Source: Salinispira sp. (lineage in GTDB: Bacteria; Spirochaetota; Spirochaetia; DSM-27196; Salinispiraceae). From it: a stretch of DNA of 64,000 nt. The first letter of the stretch is position 1, and every line of letters begins with the position of its first letter. The position numbers and the translations under genes were made by a program. Positions 1 to 8,449 of the stretch are shown here, in pieces. The notes beneath the pieces are model-generated. The model did no database searches. It was given only the letters and a program-made list of their open reading frames with translations, and was not told the origin of the DNA. The stretch covers positions 1,792,001 to 1,856,000 of the forward strand of contig OZ271918.1 in assembly GCA_965602015.1 (NCBI GenBank), read 5' to 3'.

Positions 1-964
1 TATCAACCCTGAAGCCGTCAACCCCCATCTCGAGCCAGTACCGCATAATGTCAAGCATCTTTACCCAGGTCGAGGGAGGGGGATCGAATGACGCGTCGGG
101 CCCGCCAGAGAAATTTCTCCCGTAGTTAAGCTTGATGGTCTCAAACCAGTCATTGATGCTCGGCTGGGGAGAAAATACATCGTTTCCCGTAGCCTTGGCC
201 GGAGATTCGGCGAACATCCCGTCCTCCAGGGGATGGGTCCGATCGGGTCCCATGGGATCGTGACCGGCGGGCACCTCAAAATCACCGGATGGAAGGTAGT
301 AAAAATTGTTGTCCCGGTGGAAGGGCAGCGTCGGATCGTCCTCGGCTCCCAGGTTGCTTACTCCCCTGTCCAGAAGGGGAAGAATGTCGGAACCGTAATC
401 CCGAGCCACGTGATTACCCACCAGATCGATTATGACCTTTAGCCCCGCATCATGAGTCCGTTGGACAAGCGCGCGAAACTCATTGATGCGATTATCAACA
501 TCTTCTGCGAGCATGGGATTCACATCGTAGTAGTCTTTAATGGCGTAGGGAGAGCCGGCAATGCCCTTAATGACGTCGGCATCATCACGTTCGATTCCGT
601 ATTCACTCCAGTCGCTCATGGTGGCATGTTCAATAACCCCGGTGTACCAGATGTGGGTAAATCCCATCTCCCTCACTTCCCCGAGGGCTTCCTCGGTGAA
701 GTCGTTGAAGGTTCCAACTCCGTTTTGCTCAAGGGTTCCGTGAATGACGTTGCTGTCATTGGTATTTCCGAACAGGCGCGTCATTACCTGATAGATTATC
801 ATCTTGTTGTCTTCCAGCCGGGACAGATCCTCATTGGGGTCCGGCGCAGGGGCGCTTGGCGGAGGAGGCAGGGCCTGGCTGCCGGTACTCGTACAGGCAG
901 CTAAAAACAGCACTACCGCAATCAGCGGGAATAATTTCAAAAGCCTTTGCATCACTTTACTCAT
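1..964 (-). CDS. Alpha-amylase family (GH13) lipoprotein, 3' end runs off the window
   Basis: Not in the ORF track because it is open at the edge. ATG at 964 reads MSKVMQRLLKLFPLIAVVLFLAAC (lipobox), then GFTHIWYTG, GSPYAIKDYYDV, DLVGNH and GVDGFRVD (GH13 catalytic motif) in one frame. Confidence 0.88.
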   Translation of the reverse strand, partial: MSKVMQRLLKLFPLIAVVLFLAACTSTGSQALPPPPSAPAPDPNEDLSRLEDNKMIIYQVMTRLFGNTNDSNVIHGTLEQNGVGTFNDFTEEALGEVREMGFTHIWYTGVIEHATMSDWSEYGIERDDADVIKGIAGSPYAIKDYYDVNPMLAEDVDNRINEFRALVQRTHDAGLKVIIDLVGNHVARDYGSDILPLLDRGVSNLGAEDDPTLPFHRDNNFYYLPSGDFEVPAGHDPMGPDRTHPLEDGMFAESPAKATGNDVFSPQPSINDWFETIKLNYGRNFSGGPDASFDPPPSTWVKMLDIMRYWLEMGVDGFRVD

Positions 965-1240
965 CAATACCGTCCTTCTTTAAGCGCCGGGAATTAAAAA
1001 CCAACCCGGCAGCCGGGAATGTCGTGTCTACCGCCAAGTATGACATGAAATCCATAACGTGGCATCATGAAGATGCGAGCTTATGGATGTTTAGGGATAG
1101 TGTTTTTTTATTATGAGCATAAAATTTAATGGAATAAGTAGGCTTCCCGCGGAAAATCGATGTAAAATAGCCGGACAAAGCACTGTCGATGGCCAGCGAG
1201 CTGTCGTCGGTGTGATACCCTTTACTGAGTGGTATGATGC

Positions 1241-1738
1241 ATGATTAAAAAGGATTTTAGCCTTACGATATCCTCAGACTGGATGGAAATGCTCAGGGTA
1301 AATGAGCAGGCCCGGCGGTTTTTCCAAAGCTGCAATCTCCCCCGGGAAACCGTGGACACCTTTACCATGGTGGCATGCGAACTGGTAGAAAACGGCATCA
1401 AGTACGGGGGGACGGGAAACATAAAAAATGCTCCCCTCACACTCGCTCTTGATATCGATGGTCAGACCATCACCATTCAGGTATCCAACAGCACCAGCAG
1501 TGAAAACGGCTATCATCTAAGAGAACTGGACAGGACGCTTCAATGGATCCGCGGTTTTCAGGATCCCTTCCAGGCATATATTGAACGTCTCAAGCAAATT
1601 TCGAAGGAACCTTCAAATAAGGGCACAAGCGGTCTGGGAATTGTGCGAATCGCATATGAAGCCCGGGCGGCAATTGACTTTGTCCTCAGCGAGGACGATA
1701 CCCTCGAAGTCTCGGCGATCGCACGAATTTCAAAATAG
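1241..1738 (+). CDS. Anti-sigma-type HATPase Ser/Thr kinase (RsbW/SiaB/slr1658-like)
   Basis: ELVENGIKYG (N box) and SGLGIVRI (G box); no HisKA domain. Confidence 0.75.
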   Translation: MIKKDFSLTISSDWMEMLRVNEQARRFFQSCNLPRETVDTFTMVACELVENGIKYGGTGNIKNAPLTLALDIDGQTITIQVSNSTSSENGYHLRELDRTLQWIRGFQDPFQAYIERLKQISKEPSNKGTSGLGIVRIAYEARAAIDFVLSEDDTLEVSAIARISK

Positions 1739-1747
1739 GAGTGAGTC

Positions 1748-2125
1748 ATGAAAAGATTTAACGGCATTGAGGACGGGCCCCTGAAAGTTATCCGCAAAGA
1801 TGGGGAAAATCAGATTTCCGTATTTTTTTCCGGCAAAAGCATAGTCCGGGATCCATCTGAACTCCTGCAGCCGGCGCTCTTCGAGTTGCTTGAGGAAGCC
1901 GAGGACACCGGATCCCGGCTGGTCCTGGACTTTTCATCCCTGGAGTACATGAACTCATCGACCTTTACCCCGCTTGTCAAAACGCTGGAAAGAGCCCGAC
2001 TGGGCAAGGCCTCGGTAACGGTGATATACGATCAAAACGCCAAATGGCAGACAGTGTCCTTCACGGCGCTCATGATTTTTGACAGCGATGACGGCCGGGT
2101 CACCGTCAAGGGGATAAGCGAATAA
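1748..2125 (+). CDS. STAS-like anti-anti-sigma / SiaC-like phospho-acceptor
   Basis: LVLDFSSLEYMNSSTF motif, SGKS N-terminal motif and C-terminal WQ; GGAG RBS. Confidence 0.7.
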   Translation: MKRFNGIEDGPLKVIRKDGENQISVFFSGKSIVRDPSELLQPALFELLEEAEDTGSRLVLDFSSLEYMNSSTFTPLVKTLERARLGKASVTVIYDQNAKWQTVSFTALMIFDSDDGRVTVKGISE

Positions 2126-3538
2126 ATGTCCCGAGACGACCTCAGCTATTCCGGCACCCTTGTCGACAGCGGGAAATCACTATCGGTAAGGGTGCGCATC
2201 GCTTCGCGTTACTCCCTATGGCTGCGCTTTGTCGGCAGGGAACCCCGGATCGTCGAAAAGCGCTTTGAGAAATTCAAGCTCCAACTAGAGGAACGGACTG
2301 TTGAAATGGGGCCTTGTGATTTGCGTTCGGATATCGGAGGGCTGGACGGAGAGTTGCGCCTCATCCCCCTGCGGTCAATTACTGACTTTGAAAAACTGCT
2401 GTTTCGCTCCAGAGTTTCGATTCTCGAGTCCGCAGCCCTCAATCTTCCGCTCATTCTCAGCTATAAAAACAGCATCGATACGGACTTCTCGCTGTTTGTG
2501 TCGGACCTGACCTATGACCTGAGCGCTTTTCGCGCCACATTGGATGAGATAGATGAGAACATCGCCGATGAACCAGAGCCCGTGCGCTCGGCCATCCGTT
2601 CTGGAATTATAGAAAGCGTCGGCGGTGATCTCATGGAAGTGCTCGAAAAGAAACACAAAACCCTGATCCGGATTACGGAAAACTGGACGGAAAAACAGCA
2701 CGAGCATCACGGCTATTTCTTCCGGCGCCAGTTATGGAGCATCATTCTCAGCTCGCCCATCATGACCCGGACAAACACCAAGCCCAGGGGCTATATCGGC
2801 GACTCCGAGATGATGCATATGATCTATCTCAATGATTATCAGGGCGCCAGCACCTTTGGGCAGATTCTGCACAAGTACTCAGTCGATCAGCCCGCAGCCC
2901 AGGCGGTGCGCAATCGCCGCAAGGATCTGTCCGAAATTCTGAGAAGGTTTATGGATGGGTGGGAACCTCAGGAGAGCCAGGGGGGAAAAGATGCCATGCG
3001 GGTTCTCTCGGTCGCCTGCGGTCCGGCCATGGAGCTTTCGGATATAATAAAAACCCGTGAAGATTGCTTCAGGCTTCATTTCTCCCTCCTCGATCAGGAC
3101 CCTCACGCCTTGGAGGAAGCCGCTTCTGTGGTTGAGAGCATAGAGAAAAAGCTCGACAGGCCCATCTCGGTTGACTTTCTCAAGGAATCGGTTCGAACCA
3201 TGCTGGTAACCCGGGAGCTGCAGGATAGATGGGGGCGTTTCGATTTTATCTATTCCATGGGTTTGTTTGATTACCTCACTCCTCCGGTTGCCAAGGCGGT
3301 AATAAAAAAACTGTACAATTTGCTGCTTCCCGGCGGCGAGATGATCATCGGGAACTTCTCAGTAGACAATCCGACCAAAACCTACATGGCATATTGGATG
3401 GACTGGTCTATAATATATAGAAGCAGGGAAGAAATGTACGCCCTCGGCGATGATCTTCCCGGCGCCCACACTGAGGTGGGGGTGGATGCTACGGGGATCC
3501 AGTTGTTTCTCCGGATTAATAAGGCGAAAGCGGAATGA
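2126..3538 (+). CDS. Class I SAM methyltransferase, PhcB-like (3-hydroxy fatty acid methyl ester signal synthase family)
   Basis: TKPRGYIGDSEMMHMIY, AAQAVRNR, VLSVACGPAME, YSMGLFDYL, GNF, MDWSIIYRS. Confidence 0.75.
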   Translation: MSRDDLSYSGTLVDSGKSLSVRVRIASRYSLWLRFVGREPRIVEKRFEKFKLQLEERTVEMGPCDLRSDIGGLDGELRLIPLRSITDFEKLLFRSRVSILESAALNLPLILSYKNSIDTDFSLFVSDLTYDLSAFRATLDEIDENIADEPEPVRSAIRSGIIESVGGDLMEVLEKKHKTLIRITENWTEKQHEHHGYFFRRQLWSIILSSPIMTRTNTKPRGYIGDSEMMHMIYLNDYQGASTFGQILHKYSVDQPAAQAVRNRRKDLSEILRRFMDGWEPQESQGGKDAMRVLSVACGPAMELSDIIKTREDCFRLHFSLLDQDPHALEEAASVVESIEKKLDRPISVDFLKESVRTMLVTRELQDRWGRFDFIYSMGLFDYLTPPVAKAVIKKLYNLLLPGGEMIIGNFSVDNPTKTYMAYWMDWSIIYRSREEMYALGDDLPGAHTEVGVDATGIQLFLRINKAKAE

Positions 3539-4953
3539 CGACTTCCGGCGATGTAAAAAACAAGCGTAGCAGGTTCGGCGACCGGGTAAAGCTGGACAAC
3601 ACCCCGGCAAATGAGGCTATTGACCGCAACGACTTTGAATGGTACCAGCAAAATATTGTCCATTCCTGGCTTCAAATAATAACCGCCCTCACCTTCGTTT
3701 TGGTCCCCCTGTTCTTTGTACTCGATATTGTGGTCACTCCCTCCGACCTTCTCCTGGATTTCGGGATTTTTCGGGCCAGTTCCACCATTATCGCACTGGC
3801 TCAATACCTGGTGGTCCGCCACACCCGGCCGCATAAGTACTCCTTCCTTCACGGGTATTTTGTGTCCCTCCATGTTGGGGGAGTCATCGCGCTGATGACC
3901 GTGTATCTCGGGGGGTTTCAGTCCGGCTACTATGTAGGACTGATAATGGTCATCATCGGCGCAAACTTGCTGATGCCATGGCACGCCAAACACACGGCGA
4001 TTAATGTGGCCATAATCATTGGCATGTATGTCAGCCTGAATCTGATATTCAGCGACACCGTCGATTGGATCAGCGCGGCGAACAACCTGTTTTTCCTCCT
4101 GGGCACCTCAATCATTTCCGTTGCCATCAATCACGTCCGATACAGCCTGATCCAAACGGAATTCTCGCTGCTGGTACAGTTGAAACAGGCCAGGGACGCC
4201 CTCTGGAGCGAAATGGAACTTGCAAAACAGGTACAAACCGCTTTGCTTCCCCAGGATTTACACATACAGGGTTATGAAATCTCGGTAACCTTCGAACCGG
4301 CCAAAGAGGTGGGCGGCGACTATTATGACGTCATTCAAACTCCCGGAGGTTCGCGGTACATCGCCATCGGCGACGTCGCAGGGCATGGCTTGGACTCGGG
4401 ACTCATTATGATGATGGCCCAGACCGCGGTAATGACTGTTGTCCAGGGAAATGAGGGCTGCTCGCCTTCGGAGGTGCTGCAAAGCGTCAACGCCGTCCTG
4501 CGGGAGAATATTCAGCGACTCGGGGCAAACCATTACATGACCATGACCGTTATCAAGCTCGAAGACGATACCATGCACATCGCCGGCCATCATCAGGACA
4601 TCATCGTCTATCGACACAAAAGCACCCAGGTAGAAACCCTGTCGGTGTACGGAAGCTGGCTCGGCATTACAGACGACATTAGCGGGTACGCTAAAACCAC
4701 CTCAATTCCCATGGCTGAAAATGACGCGTTTCTGCTTTTTTCTGACGGCGTCACAGAAGCCAATTCCGAATCCCGCGGCATGTTCGGTCAATCGCGCCTG
4801 ACCTCAATTTTCCAACGGACCGCCGCCTCAGGCCCCAGGGAGACCCTTCGGGAGGTCAGGGCTGCGGTAACATCCTTTCAGACTGAACAGGATGACGATA
4901 TGACCATGATCATGGTCAAAAAAACTTCGACTCTCCCCCCATCGCAGCGATAA
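3535..4953 (+). CDS. Multi-pass membrane sensor fused to SpoIIE/RsbU PP2C phosphatase
   Basis: About 6 TM helices, then ELAKQVQTALLP, EVGGDYYD, IGDVAGHG, FSDGVTEA, QDDDMT; ATGA overlap with the upstream gene. Confidence 0.9.
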   Translation: MTTSGDVKNKRSRFGDRVKLDNTPANEAIDRNDFEWYQQNIVHSWLQIITALTFVLVPLFFVLDIVVTPSDLLLDFGIFRASSTIIALAQYLVVRHTRPHKYSFLHGYFVSLHVGGVIALMTVYLGGFQSGYYVGLIMVIIGANLLMPWHAKHTAINVAIIIGMYVSLNLIFSDTVDWISAANNLFFLLGTSIISVAINHVRYSLIQTEFSLLVQLKQARDALWSEMELAKQVQTALLPQDLHIQGYEISVTFEPAKEVGGDYYDVIQTPGGSRYIAIGDVAGHGLDSGLIMMMAQTAVMTVVQGNEGCSPSEVLQSVNAVLRENIQRLGANHYMTMTVIKLEDDTMHIAGHHQDIIVYRHKSTQVETLSVYGSWLGITDDISGYAKTTSIPMAENDAFLLFSDGVTEANSESRGMFGQSRLTSIFQRTAASGPRETLREVRAAVTSFQTEQDDDMTMIMVKKTSTLPPSQR

Positions 4954-4998: not shown

Positions 4999-5937
4999 AT
5001 GACCGGAAGTAAACGCCTGATCACCGGTTACATCCGGATAATTCGAGTACCCCTGGCCTCAAGCGCCGCAGTCTGCGCGCTGGCCGCAGCCCTTCTCAGC
5101 GGACATACAATAGGAGGCGACGCACTCGAAACAGCCTCCCTCGTGGCAATGGTCCTGACAGTGTTTTTTCTCGCCTCGGGGACCATGCCGCTCAATGACC
5201 TCATGGATATTTCCGCAGACCGGATAAATGCGCCGGATCGTCCTCTGCCCTCCGGCATGATCAGCCCGGGCAGCGCGCTGGCCATTCATGGGATACACAG
5301 CCTGCTGGGTTTGATTGTCGCCGTATCTGCCGGCTTACCCGCCCTGATCTTTAGCGCGATAATTTACATCAACTCTAGCCTGTACAGCCTGTTCAAGAAG
5401 CGCCTTGCTTTTATACCCAATCTTCAGGTGAGCTTCTCTGTGGCGGCAGTGTTCCTCGCCTATCCTATCTTTGCAATATCCGCCCCCGCACAAATCCGTG
5501 AGGCAGTGAGCGGCGGGCTTCTGCCGGTGATCCTGCCCCTGGTGTTTTTGATAAGCCTGCAGCTGGAACTGGCCGGCGATATTCTTGATGCTCGCGGCGA
5601 TGGGGACGGCGGCGGCAAATCAATTGCCGTCTCATGGGGGCTGCTTACCGCCAAATTGCTTTTCGCGGCAATTGGCCTGGCTAATCTTGGGGTCTCTGGA
5701 ATGATACTCACCGGCGCATTGGAGTCCTCGGATTCCGGGGTACCGGGTTTTATCAGCAGAGGCATGGTAATTTTCGCTGCAAGCGCGACCGCCCTGTTTA
5801 CCCCGGGCTTCATCATAGCCACCTGGGATCCCGTAAAAAGCCGGCAAAGGGGAAAAATCGCAATAATTTCCTACTTCATTTTTATGACCATGGTAGTAAT
5901 GGGGGGAGCCTTGTTCTACCGTATAGCGGAATCTTGA
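4999..5937 (+). CDS. UbiA-family prenyltransferase (DGGGP synthase-like)
   Basis: NDLMDISADRINAPDRPLPSG and second Asp motif DILDARGD; very hydrophobic. Confidence 0.85.
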   Translation: MTGSKRLITGYIRIIRVPLASSAAVCALAAALLSGHTIGGDALETASLVAMVLTVFFLASGTMPLNDLMDISADRINAPDRPLPSGMISPGSALAIHGIHSLLGLIVAVSAGLPALIFSAIIYINSSLYSLFKKRLAFIPNLQVSFSVAAVFLAYPIFAISAPAQIREAVSGGLLPVILPLVFLISLQLELAGDILDARGDGDGGGKSIAVSWGLLTAKLLFAAIGLANLGVSGMILTGALESSDSGVPGFISRGMVIFAASATALFTPGFIIATWDPVKSRQRGKIAIISYFIFMTMVVMGGALFYRIAES

Positions 5938-5992
5938 ACAGCTTTGCTATGTCTGGTATCGTTTTCTGATCAAAAACTCTATAGGCGGCATT

Positions 5993-7024
5993 ATGACAAA
6001 TACTCATCGTTTGACCATTACGCTGAGCTTCGCATTTTTTTTATTTTTCTCCTGCAGTGCTCCCGAACCCATCGACCCGCCCTCGATTACATTGACCAGA
6101 GAAGATGATACCATTCATATCCTCGGTACCTTTCACAAAATGACCGAGGCGATGTATTCGGAGATAACCTCAAGGGGAATCGCTGCGGAGTATTTTTTTG
6201 ATACGGCGACCATGTTTTTTTCCGAAGCCGGTGGTGATCCGATGACGAGGGCTGAGTTTGAACAGCTGCAAAAGCTAAGAACCGGGGACGGCGCCGGTCG
6301 CCCGAGCGTTGAAGATTTGCTGAGCCTATGGGATGCACCGATGCGAGAGGAGTTCCAAAATCTGGTAAATGACTACCCCCTCCTGGACCATACGGGTCGT
6401 CAGGCAACGCTTTATGCTTCCAGGCCTCACTATGCGGTAGATTTTCTTGAAACTGATCTTATCCCCAGAGCCTGGGGAATGCCCGTAAACTTCTCGATAG
6501 ATTCCATCTATAAAACTATGGCAAAGGAGCGAGGGTTTGCGGACAATGCGCTCGATGACCAGTTAATGATCTGGGAACTGAAGGATACCCTGGCGGATGA
6601 CGACGCGTTTATGGAGTATTTATTTTGCATGCTTCGCTTTCCGATGCAGCGGGAACAGATCGAAGCTGATCGTCTTGAAAAGCTGCAGTTATATGCAGAC
6701 AGCTGGAGCTCGGGAAAGCTTATTAGGATTGAGGATTATGACTTTGAGCATGATGACCGAGCCTGGAATGAACTTGACGCGGAGCTCCGTGCGGTTTTGA
6801 ATAATTTCTCCAGCAGCTGGCTGTGGAAACCCCGGGAAGAACGCTGGGTTTCGGTGATTGACCAGAACCTGTTGGAGAATCCCGGGCCGCAGACCCTTGT
6901 GCTGGCCGTAGGTTACGGACACCTCATGAGTCCGCCCTCCGAGTTTATTCCGCTCCTTGTGGCCGACAGTTGGGTGGTTGAACAGCAGCGGTTCGAGATT
7001 ACCGAATCAGCGAAGGAACAGTAA
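5993..7024 (+). CDS. TraB/GumN family lipoprotein
   Basis: Signal peptide ending FFSC; ILGTFH and LAVGYGHL motifs. Confidence 0.7.
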   Translation: MTNTHRLTITLSFAFFLFFSCSAPEPIDPPSITLTREDDTIHILGTFHKMTEAMYSEITSRGIAAEYFFDTATMFFSEAGGDPMTRAEFEQLQKLRTGDGAGRPSVEDLLSLWDAPMREEFQNLVNDYPLLDHTGRQATLYASRPHYAVDFLETDLIPRAWGMPVNFSIDSIYKTMAKERGFADNALDDQLMIWELKDTLADDDAFMEYLFCMLRFPMQREQIEADRLEKLQLYADSWSSGKLIRIEDYDFEHDDRAWNELDAELRAVLNNFSSSWLWKPREERWVSVIDQNLLENPGPQTLVLAVGYGHLMSPPSEFIPLLVADSWVVEQQRFEITESAKEQ

Positions 7025-7054: not shown

Positions 7055-8449
7055 TTACGATTGGCTCTGTGGGGCTTGAACCTCAATTCGGGGTATTGTC
7101 ATGCGGTAGCTGACGCCGTTGCCAGGGCTGCTTTCGACGCTGATCCTGCCGCCGACGGCCACCAGCAGATTATAGACCAAATTCATTCCAAGTCCGGTGC
7201 TGCCCTTGCCCCTGGCTGTGGTAAAAAACGGTTCAAAGTGATGCTTCAAGGTCTTCTCATCCATTCCCGATCCATTATCGGCGTAGCCCAGTTCCAATTG
7301 CCCGGCGCGAAGTTCAAATGAAATAGTAATGCGTCCGCCATGGCTGTTAATCCCGTGGGTCAGGCTATTACTGATAAGATTAGAGTACACCTGCCACAGA
7401 AGCCCCGGATACATTGCCAGGCGCAGACCTTGGGGTCCCTGAACATTCACGTCGAGATCTCCGCGGCTTCTGAGCTGCCCCTCCAAACTGCCCACGACCA
7501 TTTCCAGTTCATCCCTGATATCAACAATGCTGGCGGTCTGATGATGCAAATCTGCGGCGATGCGTTTGAAATTGGTCACCAGATTCCGGGCCGCCCCGAG
7601 ATTCCTCTCGGCAGCCTGGACGGCTTCAAGACCGGTACGGGTGAAATCCTGAAGCCGCGAACGGGTTAAATCACCAGAGGAAATGCTGCCGGATATTGAT
7701 TCGAACTCATTAAGGAGGTGACTGACGATTGTCACACTGTTTCCCAGGGGAGTGTTGATTTCATGACTGATACCCCCAACCATGGACCCCAGGGCGGCAA
7801 GTTTCTCCGATTCCACCAGTGCATTGGTGCGTTCCTGAACCGTCTCTTCCAGTTTTTCATTAATGCCTTCCAATTCAGAAAACAGATTTCTCGTCTGTTC
7901 GTTGATCGAAGTGCCCATAACCGCCGCCAGAATTATTAGGATGATAACCGCAAAATAATTATGGGCATACTCTTCCATTGGAATGCTGCTCTCGGGAACA
8001 ACCATGGCAAAAAAGTAATAGCTGATTATCGCAAGCGACAGGCCGGCGATGAGCACACTGTCCCGACGCTTGAGACTGATCAAGCCTGCGAGCAGTATGG
8101 TGAGCACGGAAAAGAGACCGAGATTATAGAGAAGCTCATGCCTCGGCGGCTCGGCGAGGTATACGGTTGAACTCAAGATGCTTAAGGAATATAAGAGGGT
8201 CAGAAGCACCGCAGGAGTGAAGCCGCCCCGATTAAGCAGCCAAAGATTCCCAAGCAGCAGCACGATCAGGATGGCCAGCATCGGGATCTTTGCCGTATAG
8301 CCTTCCAGAACCCATGCAAGACCGGTAAACGTAAGCGCGGACGGCACGAACAACATGTGGAGAAAAAAAAGCGCCCGGGCTCTTCGGTATGTAAGGGCTG
8401 ATTCACCCATGTACGCATCGAGGAATCGCTGAGTAAAGCTCTGATTCAT
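7055..8449 (-). CDS. Orphan membrane sensor histidine kinase
   Basis: N-terminal TM helices; GGISHEINTPLG H box, NLISNSLTHG, DNGSG, FEPFFTT, GLG. Confidence 0.9.
   Translation of the reverse strand: MNQSFTQRFLDAYMGESALTYRRARALFFLHMLFVPSALTFTGLAWVLEGYTAKIPMLAILIVLLLGNLWLLNRGGFTPAVLLTLLYSLSILSSTVYLAEPPRHELLYNLGLFSVLTILLAGLISLKRRDSVLIAGLSLAIISYYFFAMVVPESSIPMEEYAHNYFAVIILIILAAVMGTSINEQTRNLFSELEGINEKLEETVQERTNALVESEKLAALGSMVGGISHEINTPLGNSVTIVSHLLNEFESISGSISSGDLTRSRLQDFTRTGLEAVQAAERNLGAARNLVTNFKRIAADLHHQTASIVDIRDELEMVVGSLEGQLRSRGDLDVNVQGPQGLRLAMYPGLLWQVYSNLISNSLTHGINSHGGRITISFELRAGQLELGYADNGSGMDEKTLKHHFEPFFTTARGKGSTGLGMNLVYNLLVAVGGRISVESSPGNGVSYRMTIPRIEVQAPQSQS

Follow-up and report, generated by a model that had tools for sequence, protein, structure and literature searches.

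Signalling by fatty-acid methyl esters is known from the Phc system of Ralstonia and Cupriavidus (PhcB, PhcS, PhcR/PhcQ, and PhcA), in which the synthase PhcB is paired with the membrane sensor kinase PhcS. A similar logic of synthase plus six-helix receptor is found in CqsA/CqsS and LqsA/LqsS, whose receptors have histidine-kinase output; CqsA and LqsA are pyridoxal phosphate enzymes that make hydroxyketones. Partner switches form another group of described systems. SiaABCD of Pseudomonas aeruginosa combines a membrane PP2C phosphatase, a GHKL-type kinase, and a STAS-like acceptor, SiaC, which activates SiaD (PMC8457831), and the same three folds make up the RsbU/V/W and SpoIIE/SpoIIAA/SpoIIAB switches. 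Here we describe a four-gene cassette that has parts of both groups, located near one end of a 64,000-nucleotide stretch (hereafter the window; positions 1,792,001 to 1,856,000 of contig OZ271918.1, assembly GCA_965602015.1) of Salinispira sp. The cassette encodes, in this order, an anti-sigma-type kinase, a STAS protein, a PhcB-family methyltransferase, and a membrane PP2C phosphatase. An earlier note on this DNA had proposed the pairing of a PhcB-like synthase with a signalling switch; this pairing gains a point unseen then, namely that the membrane domain of the phosphatase is related to the sensor domain of PhcS. We are inclined, by a modest preference, to read the cassette as a self-signalling (quorum-sensing-like) circuit, in which a diffusible fatty-acid methyl ester sensed by the phosphatase would set the phosphorylation of Ser70 of the STAS protein.

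The PhcB/PhcS comparator was L079, an operon on a Paraburkholderia plasmid that encodes a methyltransferase, a PhcS-like sensor kinase, and two response regulators. The N-terminal part of this kinase can be aligned with residues 26-215 of the phosphatase (26% identity over 193 residues). All Phc references are Cupriavidus, Paraburkholderia, and Janthinobacterium proteins standing in for Ralstonia PhcB and PhcS; those for PhcS are the L079 kinase and P0435, a database-named Janthinobacterium protein with His231 where the published protein has H230. A profile built from 50 sensor domains detected the L079 kinase at E 3.6e-11 and the PhcS-named P0435 at E 4.9e-8, while the best background match among 7,860 open reading frames of the cassette's own genome had an E of 0.58. 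As whole-record controls, Escherichia coli K-12 gave a best E of 0.15 and two other replicons gave no match. On the Paraburkholderia plasmid the sole match was the L079 kinase, and on a cyanobacterial plasmid there were three, one of them beside that plasmid's own methyltransferase homolog. A tblastn search of the plasmids with a single sensor domain returned no match, though the profile reaches L079, so PhcS is within reach of profile searches only. Of the 20 invariant residues of the domain, 10-11 are kept in the PhcS-type proteins, including D64, R80, Y133, G135, and Y165. The PhcS substitution L161R was not used, its mapping onto the window protein being ambiguous by one residue.

The sensor domain was modelled as six helices (predicted local distance difference test [pLDDT] 94). 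Its best fold matches are ImcA (Z 16.1, 185 residues aligned) and mammalian adenylyl-cyclase membrane domains (Z 14.6 and 14.5), followed by a next match at 9.0. A six-helix design is also common to the lipid-autoinducer receptors CqsS and LqsS (PMC4821796), which we liken to the cassette sensor by design. Precomputed Pfam annotation places MASE8 (PF20968) on 115 of 120 relatives, whereas our local Pfam scan found it in 0 of 50 at E<=0.1; the L079 kinase matches MASE8 at E 0.0044, below the cut-off. The available portion of the one paper that names MASE8 gives no ligand for it. The domain is modular, being carried by PP2C phosphatases, CheA-like Hpt-HATPase kinases, methyl-accepting chemotaxis proteins (MCPs), and HD-domain proteins. 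It was found in 52 of 401 genomes, including all 30 with the cassette enzyme, and occurs once in the cassette's own genome, on the phosphatase.

The methyltransferase belongs to Methyltransf_31 by family scan (E 7.3e-7). Its profile matches that of the PhcB clade over 421 columns (24% identity, E 1.6e-39), N-terminal barrel included; pairwise, the window and L079 enzymes are 33% identical over residues 189-461 only. Homologs of the L079 enzyme include PhcB-named proteins of Cupriavidus necator N-1 (P0412), in which Arg22 is present; a mutation in Ralstonia PhcB affects this residue, whose conservation in these genera has been described (PMC6989110). Many relatives also bear the JGI name for PhcB, an automatic label. 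Common to the window enzyme and PhcB are the motifs KPxGYxGD, CGPA, and GLFDYL, with K219, P220, G222, Y223, G225, and D226. The earlier note had called the enzyme PhcB-like and had taken clustering outside the PhcB clade as a sign against this. The likeness stands as full-length homology and a small-molecule-type fold, but membership does not, because the enzyme falls outside that clade in our FastTree analysis; it is thus a homolog and not an ortholog, and the 3-hydroxy methyl ester product cannot be assumed for it.

The model of the methyltransferase (pLDDT 93.5) gave 3OCJ as the top fold match in both searches (Z 19.3, root-mean-square deviation 3.4, 255 residues aligned; next match Z 18.2). 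The two are 15-16% identical, and the aligned range is without the N-terminal barrel. 3OCJ, an ortholog of Bordetella FmtB (BP2936), has what is probably a palmitate in the cavity of its crystal structure; FmtB increases the amount of methyl fatty acids in vivo, and no activity was detected in vitro (PMC5426589). The margin of 3OCJ over generic methyltransferases is small. Neither 3OCJ nor FmtB was detected by the methyltransferase sequence profile, and searches of PDB sequences gave weak matches only; the top fold matches are small-molecule methyltransferases. Judging from these results, the enzyme is most likely a fatty-acid carboxyl methyltransferase homologous to PhcB.

Weak similarity to CheR suggests another role, in which the membrane domain senses a fatty acid from outside or from a host and the methyltransferase inactivates this ligand or, CheR-like, methylates the receptor protein. 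Pfam CheR matches the enzyme at E 0.01 (15.7 bits against a cut-off of 27) and CheR1 in the PDB at E 0.066, and a protein of a second methyltransferase clade (described below) reaches E 9.3e-7. CheA-like kinases and CheX and CheY-like genes lie near many cassettes, CheX-like genes in 10 of 42 loci, and the orphan chemoreceptors described below would fit an environmental ligand equally well. The CheR matches, however, span about 45-70 residues of the common SAM (S-adenosylmethionine)-binding core only, and the substrate-side motif KPxGYxGD is common to PhcB. In addition, no entry titled CheR or chemotaxis methyltransferase is among the fold matches listed by either search, which does not exclude CheR. 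We regard ligand removal or adaptation as distinctly unlikely.

Other members of the methyltransferase family occur in different settings. The core is also found inside type I polyketide synthases (plasmid matches H17/H18, P0266). In L097-L099, shorter members (364-370 residues) each stand directly before a GAF histidine kinase of 713-721 residues, with a 7TM match in two of the three; on their sequences, these may be one more case of a synthase-like and a receptor-like gene side by side, with another type of sensor. A second methyltransferase clade (487-505 residues, PilZ match) is paired with a sensor-phosphatase of 603-642 residues in L091-L094 and L072:13132-16429, the membrane protein of this size being present in all four loci examined, and no kinase or STAS match was found beside the pair in L091-L094. 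In genomes G207 and G242, about 6 kb separates this pair from a four-gene cassette. An expanded locus, found in L095 (G107:C28:3000-22000) and L069, has genes for a REC-PAS kinase and cyclases, the cassette, a second sensor-phosphatase, a sensor-bearing CheA-like kinase, and CheY-like and CheX-like proteins, with three copies of the sensor domain in a row.

The earlier note had also described the remaining three proteins as a kinase/STAS/PP2C module, and the residues of a partner switch are indeed kept in them, apart from Asn83 at the G1-box position of the kinase. The kinase matches HATPase_c_2 (E 1e-4), DUF6272 (E 1.8e-4), and the slr1658 superfamily (E 4.5e-12), all below curated cut-offs; all 48 kinase members match the slr1658 model, for which the cut-off is 100 bits and the window protein reaches 45.8. 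Invariant among these 48 sequences are E47, N51 (N-box), K54-Y55-G56, and S130, L132, and G133 (SGLG box), and profile matches to the SpoIIAB and Rv1364c structures are weak (E 0.004-0.012). The STAS protein matches STAS_2 (E 6.7e-4), SiaC (E 0.0025), and the slr1659 superfamily (E 5.5e-7), again below curated cut-offs, and all 42 members match the slr1659 model. Its residues 67-71 in translation are YMNSS, as quoted in the earlier note, and S70 and S71 are invariant in 42 of 42 sequences. The STAS profile aligns eymnss with SYMDS of TM1442 (E 2.2e-5) and is also aligned to RsbV; T68 of SiaC, in the peptide LLYLN-T-SS (10.1101/674879), has the same motif position as S70. The phosphatase has a SpoIIE domain at residues 272-462 (E 6.7e-35) with the metal-binding motifs GGDYYD (260), IGDVAGHG (278), LFSDGV (401), and QDDDMT (452).

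Compared with the described systems, the cassette resembles Phc in that the gene for a full-length homologous synthase directly precedes one for a membrane protein whose six-helix sensor is homologous. It differs in that the enzyme belongs to a separate clade and that the sensor is fused to PP2C and not to HisKA-HATPase, with kinase and STAS protein in place of response regulators; histidine-kinase output to PhcR/PhcQ/PhcA is not found, as the cytoplasmic part of the receptor is SpoIIE/PP2C and no response regulator is encoded in the operon. SiaABCD is similar in its phosphatase, kinase, and acceptor, and close relatives of the cassette have a cyclic di-GMP enzyme beside the kinase. The curated Sia models are not reached, though (SiaA 67.6 bits against 700, SiaB 14.7 against 85, SiaC 17.9 against 24.5), and a SiaB match at E<=0.001 was found in 1 of 48 kinases. 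The cassette kinase and acceptor are nearer to the slr1658/slr1659 models, and the cassette differs further in its embedded methyltransferase, its PhcS-related sensor, and the lack of a cyclase at the locus. With RsbU/V/W and SpoIIE/SpoIIAA/SpoIIAB it has three protein folds and their catalytic motifs in common, but no sigma factor is encoded at the locus, and the similarity of the kinase, whose G1-box position holds Asn, is weak (E about 0.01). By analogy, the switch would work like SiaABC without being a member of that family. CqsA/CqsS and LqsA/LqsS differ in synthase chemistry as well as in output.

The four genes co-occur widely in other genomes. A sample of 401 genomes of the same phylum, with a cut-off of E<1e-100 for the full-length clade, was searched; we take this phylum to be Spirochaetota because the cassette enzymes group in the tree with named Alkalispirochaeta and Leptospira loci. 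A methyltransferase match was found in 54 of the 401 genomes, and the full-length clade in 30 genomes (33 loci). The order kinase-STAS-methyltransferase-phosphatase is kept in 30 of 30 loci, taking one per genome and including our own, with the phosphatase cut or shortened at the end of the locus or contig in two; second copies (L062, L068, and L095) also have the four genes in order, giving 33 of 33. Linkage of this kind is not chance, and since related genomes are not independent, the counts show fixity and give no probability. Among 22 named GTDB loci, the complete cassette in its usual order was seen in 13. In five, from Myxococcota, the STAS genes lie downstream of a kinase-methyltransferase-phosphatase series; in one (L003), kinase and methyltransferase are followed by a CheA-like kinase; and the last three, with more distant enzymes, have none of the partner genes. 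In 201 genomes from the phylum of G402 (an Archangium; G566 left out), each clade methyltransferase is matched by one clade kinase, which lies within about 1 kb of it in 16 of 17 cases; the exception is split across short contigs. Of 16 Myxococcota loci of this kind that were examined, 12 have the four genes in order (two are duplicates of loci already counted). A search of one congener, G332, did not find the cassette; synteny with this genome breaks beside the upstream gene, so that gain and loss of the cassette cannot be told apart.

We favour a circuit because both Phc halves, synthase and sensor domain, have homologs here, and because the pairing of such a synthase with such a sensor recurs in PhcB-PhcS (L079), the cassette, the second clade, and the cyanobacterial plasmid. 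The same reading is supported by the top fold match to an ortholog of the fatty-acid methyltransferase FmtB, by the likeness of the sensor to six-helix cyclase anchors, a design seen in CqsS and LqsS, and by the fixity of the cassette (33/33 own-phylum loci and 16/17 Myxococcota kinase-methyltransferase neighbours). In the circuit that we propose, the PhcB-family enzyme would methylate a fatty acid to give a membrane-soluble methyl ester able to pass between cells, and the PhcS-related membrane domain would bind this ester and switch the attached phosphatase in one direction or the other. Phosphatase and kinase, if both are active, would jointly set the phosphorylation of Ser70. The STAS protein would in turn engage or free a partner that carries the output, on the model of SiaC and its cyclase SiaD.

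The output partner is probably not the same in all genomes. The gene directly upstream of the kinase was surveyed in 51 related loci (two counted twice, most of the unlisted rest unscanned); it encodes PAS-GGDEF-EAL in 7 of 51, including the three closest relatives, and a REC-PAS-cyclase in another 7 of 51, which are loci of the Leptospira type. These enzymes are the likely partners in the closest relatives and in Leptospira, respectively. At our locus the statement of the earlier note that no output gene is present holds, as no sigma factor or cyclase gene lies inside or adjoins the operon, but it does not extend to the closest relatives. No remnant of GGDEF-EAL was found in window positions 851-1300 (best E 0.024), and the best own-genome matches to the upstream PAS-GGDEF-EAL of the relatives are confined to the catalytic part (37-40% identity) and leave the N-terminal part unmatched. 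Since no output gene is present, output here would act in trans or on the methyltransferase itself. The window locus would thus be a stripped-down example of the cassette, without the upstream cyclic di-GMP enzyme. The further proposal that Ser phosphorylation replaces a His-Asp relay is too strong for the family, because CheA-like kinases bearing the same sensor domain stand in or beside some cassettes.

It is also conceivable, if quite improbable in our judgement, that the switch is a closed feedback on signal production, the kinase or STAS protein regulating the methyltransferase through its degenerate PilZ-like barrel while the actual output comes from CheA-like kinases and MCPs. In favour of this, the upstream output gene varies around a fixed four-gene core, and kinase and methyltransferase are one-to-one and directly adjacent even where STAS is displaced or missing (L003, L006-L010, L102, and L103). 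The barrel is PilZ-like, judging from Atlas neighbours and a second-clade match, and the cyclic di-GMP motif RxxxR is missing from it in 112 of 115 sequences; in the other 3 of 115 it stands ahead of the SRYS motif. Binding by the barrel is, however, a prediction, and the single sensor domain of our genome leaves no second receptor of that family to provide the output.

Chemoreceptors bear on whether the ester would leave the cell. Sensor-bearing proteins of 522-531 residues are MCPs in all four cases scanned, with 17-20 of the 20 invariant residues kept; two of the four come from genomes that do have a methyltransferase match. Eight genomes with the sensor domain at E<1e-50 had no methyltransferase match, and four of four rechecked were empty also by a methyltransferase profile that gave matches in other searches. 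Such orphan chemoreceptors were seen in four spirochaete genomes without a detected methyltransferase (L082:4818-6386, L083:3883-5451, L084:4906-6474, and L085:4834-6426, from G011, G039, G136, and G122, respectively), with 17-19 of the 20 invariant residues. Their presence where no enzyme was detected fits a ligand coming from other cells, and it is possible that they are eavesdropping receptors. Against this, the cassette may be a private metabolic sensor, with the methyl ester staying in the membrane of its producer and reporting the supply of fatty acid or SAM and not cell density. FmtB, the closest solved fold, makes methyl fatty acids and has no signalling role reported in the available text (PMC5426589); neither export nor density dependence can be read from the sequence; and the cassette is patchy, with no copy detected in the congener searched. 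A private role is opposed by the near-identical sensor domain of chemoreceptors from genomes in which no such enzyme was detected, and by the fact that the esters made by PhcB are secreted signals (PMC11960443). We consider a private sensor rather unlikely. A wider form of the signalling hypothesis, which we put forward only tentatively and with more doubt than confidence, is a cross-phylum lipid-ester language, related to Phc and chemically distinct from it, that would be made by spirochaetes (including Leptospira), myxobacteria, and syntrophs; producers would read it by a partner switch using Ser phosphorylation, and non-producing spirochaetes would eavesdrop through chemoreceptors.

Several points weigh against the self-signalling circuit. 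The link to PhcS is distant (26% over 193 residues), and the sensor profile gives equal or higher scores to other spirochaete proteins, which indicates a broad family. In the published accounts, as far as available, direct binding of ligand by PhcS is not shown and deletion of phcS alone has minor effects (PMC13532016, PMC11960443). The FastTree analysis, made with 196 core domains (19 of 215 were dropped at >=85% identity) from a row set drawn by similarity to the cassette profile, puts PhcB (9 rows, support 100) apart from the cassette enzymes (37 rows, support 98 among the grouped rows). Of the 99 conserved positions of the cassette core, 45 are common to PhcB, an alignment-dependent count, so the product may differ. 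The activity of FmtB was seen in vivo only, and the accessible part of the paper reports no signalling role (PMC5426589). There is no fixed output gene: of 51 loci, 14 have a confirmed gene for a cyclic-nucleotide enzyme immediately upstream, and in 13 no co-oriented open reading frame stands upstream. The kinase holds Asn83 at the G1-box position, where we presume that anti-sigma kinases have Asp. Finally, L003 has kinase and methyltransferase but no STAS or PP2C match in 13 kb, and L103 is without STAS in the 12 kb examined. As a separate observation on L003 (5384-9999), kinase and methyltransferase are followed there by a sensor-bearing HATPase kinase and CheX.

All the parts of the cassette are of known kinds; it is the wiring that is new. 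No description of it was found in the literature searched, a search whose scope excluded most subscription papers and supplements, and the same literature gave nothing relevant on PhcB with Leptospira, or on Leptospira with quorum sensing, methyl ester, or autoinducer. If our reading is right, a phosphatase partner switch is here linked to a synthase and receptor of quorum-sensing type, Leptospira and other spirochaetes gain candidates for an autoinducer synthase and its receptor, and a ligand is suggested for a six-helix sensor that folds like the membrane anchors of adenylyl cyclases. If the cross-phylum language were also true, this would be the first synthase-receptor quorum-sensing pair of such a type in spirochaetes, with a ligand for the MASE8-like domain.

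Table 1. Features of the cassette in the window (positions count from the first nucleotide of the window).
Feature	Position	Strand	Remarks
Anti-sigma-type (GHKL fold) Ser/Thr kinase-like protein, 165 aa	1241..1738	+	slr1658/SiaB/SpoIIAB superfamily
STAS / anti-sigma-antagonist-like phospho-acceptor, 125 aa	1748..2125	+	Predicted acceptor Ser70 (codon 1955-1957)
PhcB-family class I SAM methyltransferase, 470 aa	2126..3538	+	N-terminal beta-barrel, helical stalk, methyltransferase core
Membrane PP2C (SpoIIE-type) phosphatase, 472 aa	3535..4953	+	SpoIIE domain, residues 272-462
Six-helix membrane sensor domain of the phosphatase, residues 26-215	3610..4179	+	PhcS-related, MASE8-like

The genes are co-oriented and tightly coupled, as the earlier note described, with a 9-nt gap (1739-1747), a TAA (2123-2125) abutting an ATG (2126), and an ATGA overlap (3535-3538). 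The methyltransferase motifs quoted there also recur in the translation, KPRGYIGDSEMM at residues 219-230 and AQAVRNR at 258-264. Each of the four genes is single-copy in its 3.87 Mb genome. The GC content at third codon positions of the cassette (0.64) matches the genome mean (0.63) and thus gives no compositional sign of recent transfer. Scans for promoters and terminators gave counts near chance (5 vs 4.4 and 9 vs 5.8).

Downstream, a UbiA-family prenyltransferase gene, which starts 45 bp past the phosphatase, and a TraB/GumN-family gene are co-oriented with the cassette (window 4999-7024); both were rejected as cassette members, with 0 matches in 112 loci. A stand-alone membrane histidine kinase is encoded on the opposite strand (window 7055-8449, -), with no response regulator adjoining, and its membrane part has no match to the cassette sensor profile. 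Outside the window, the same genome holds two more phosphatase-STAS-kinase operons (G000:C1:3772898-3775821 and G000:C1:3707830-3710758), whose products are possible cross-talk partners of the cassette STAS protein.

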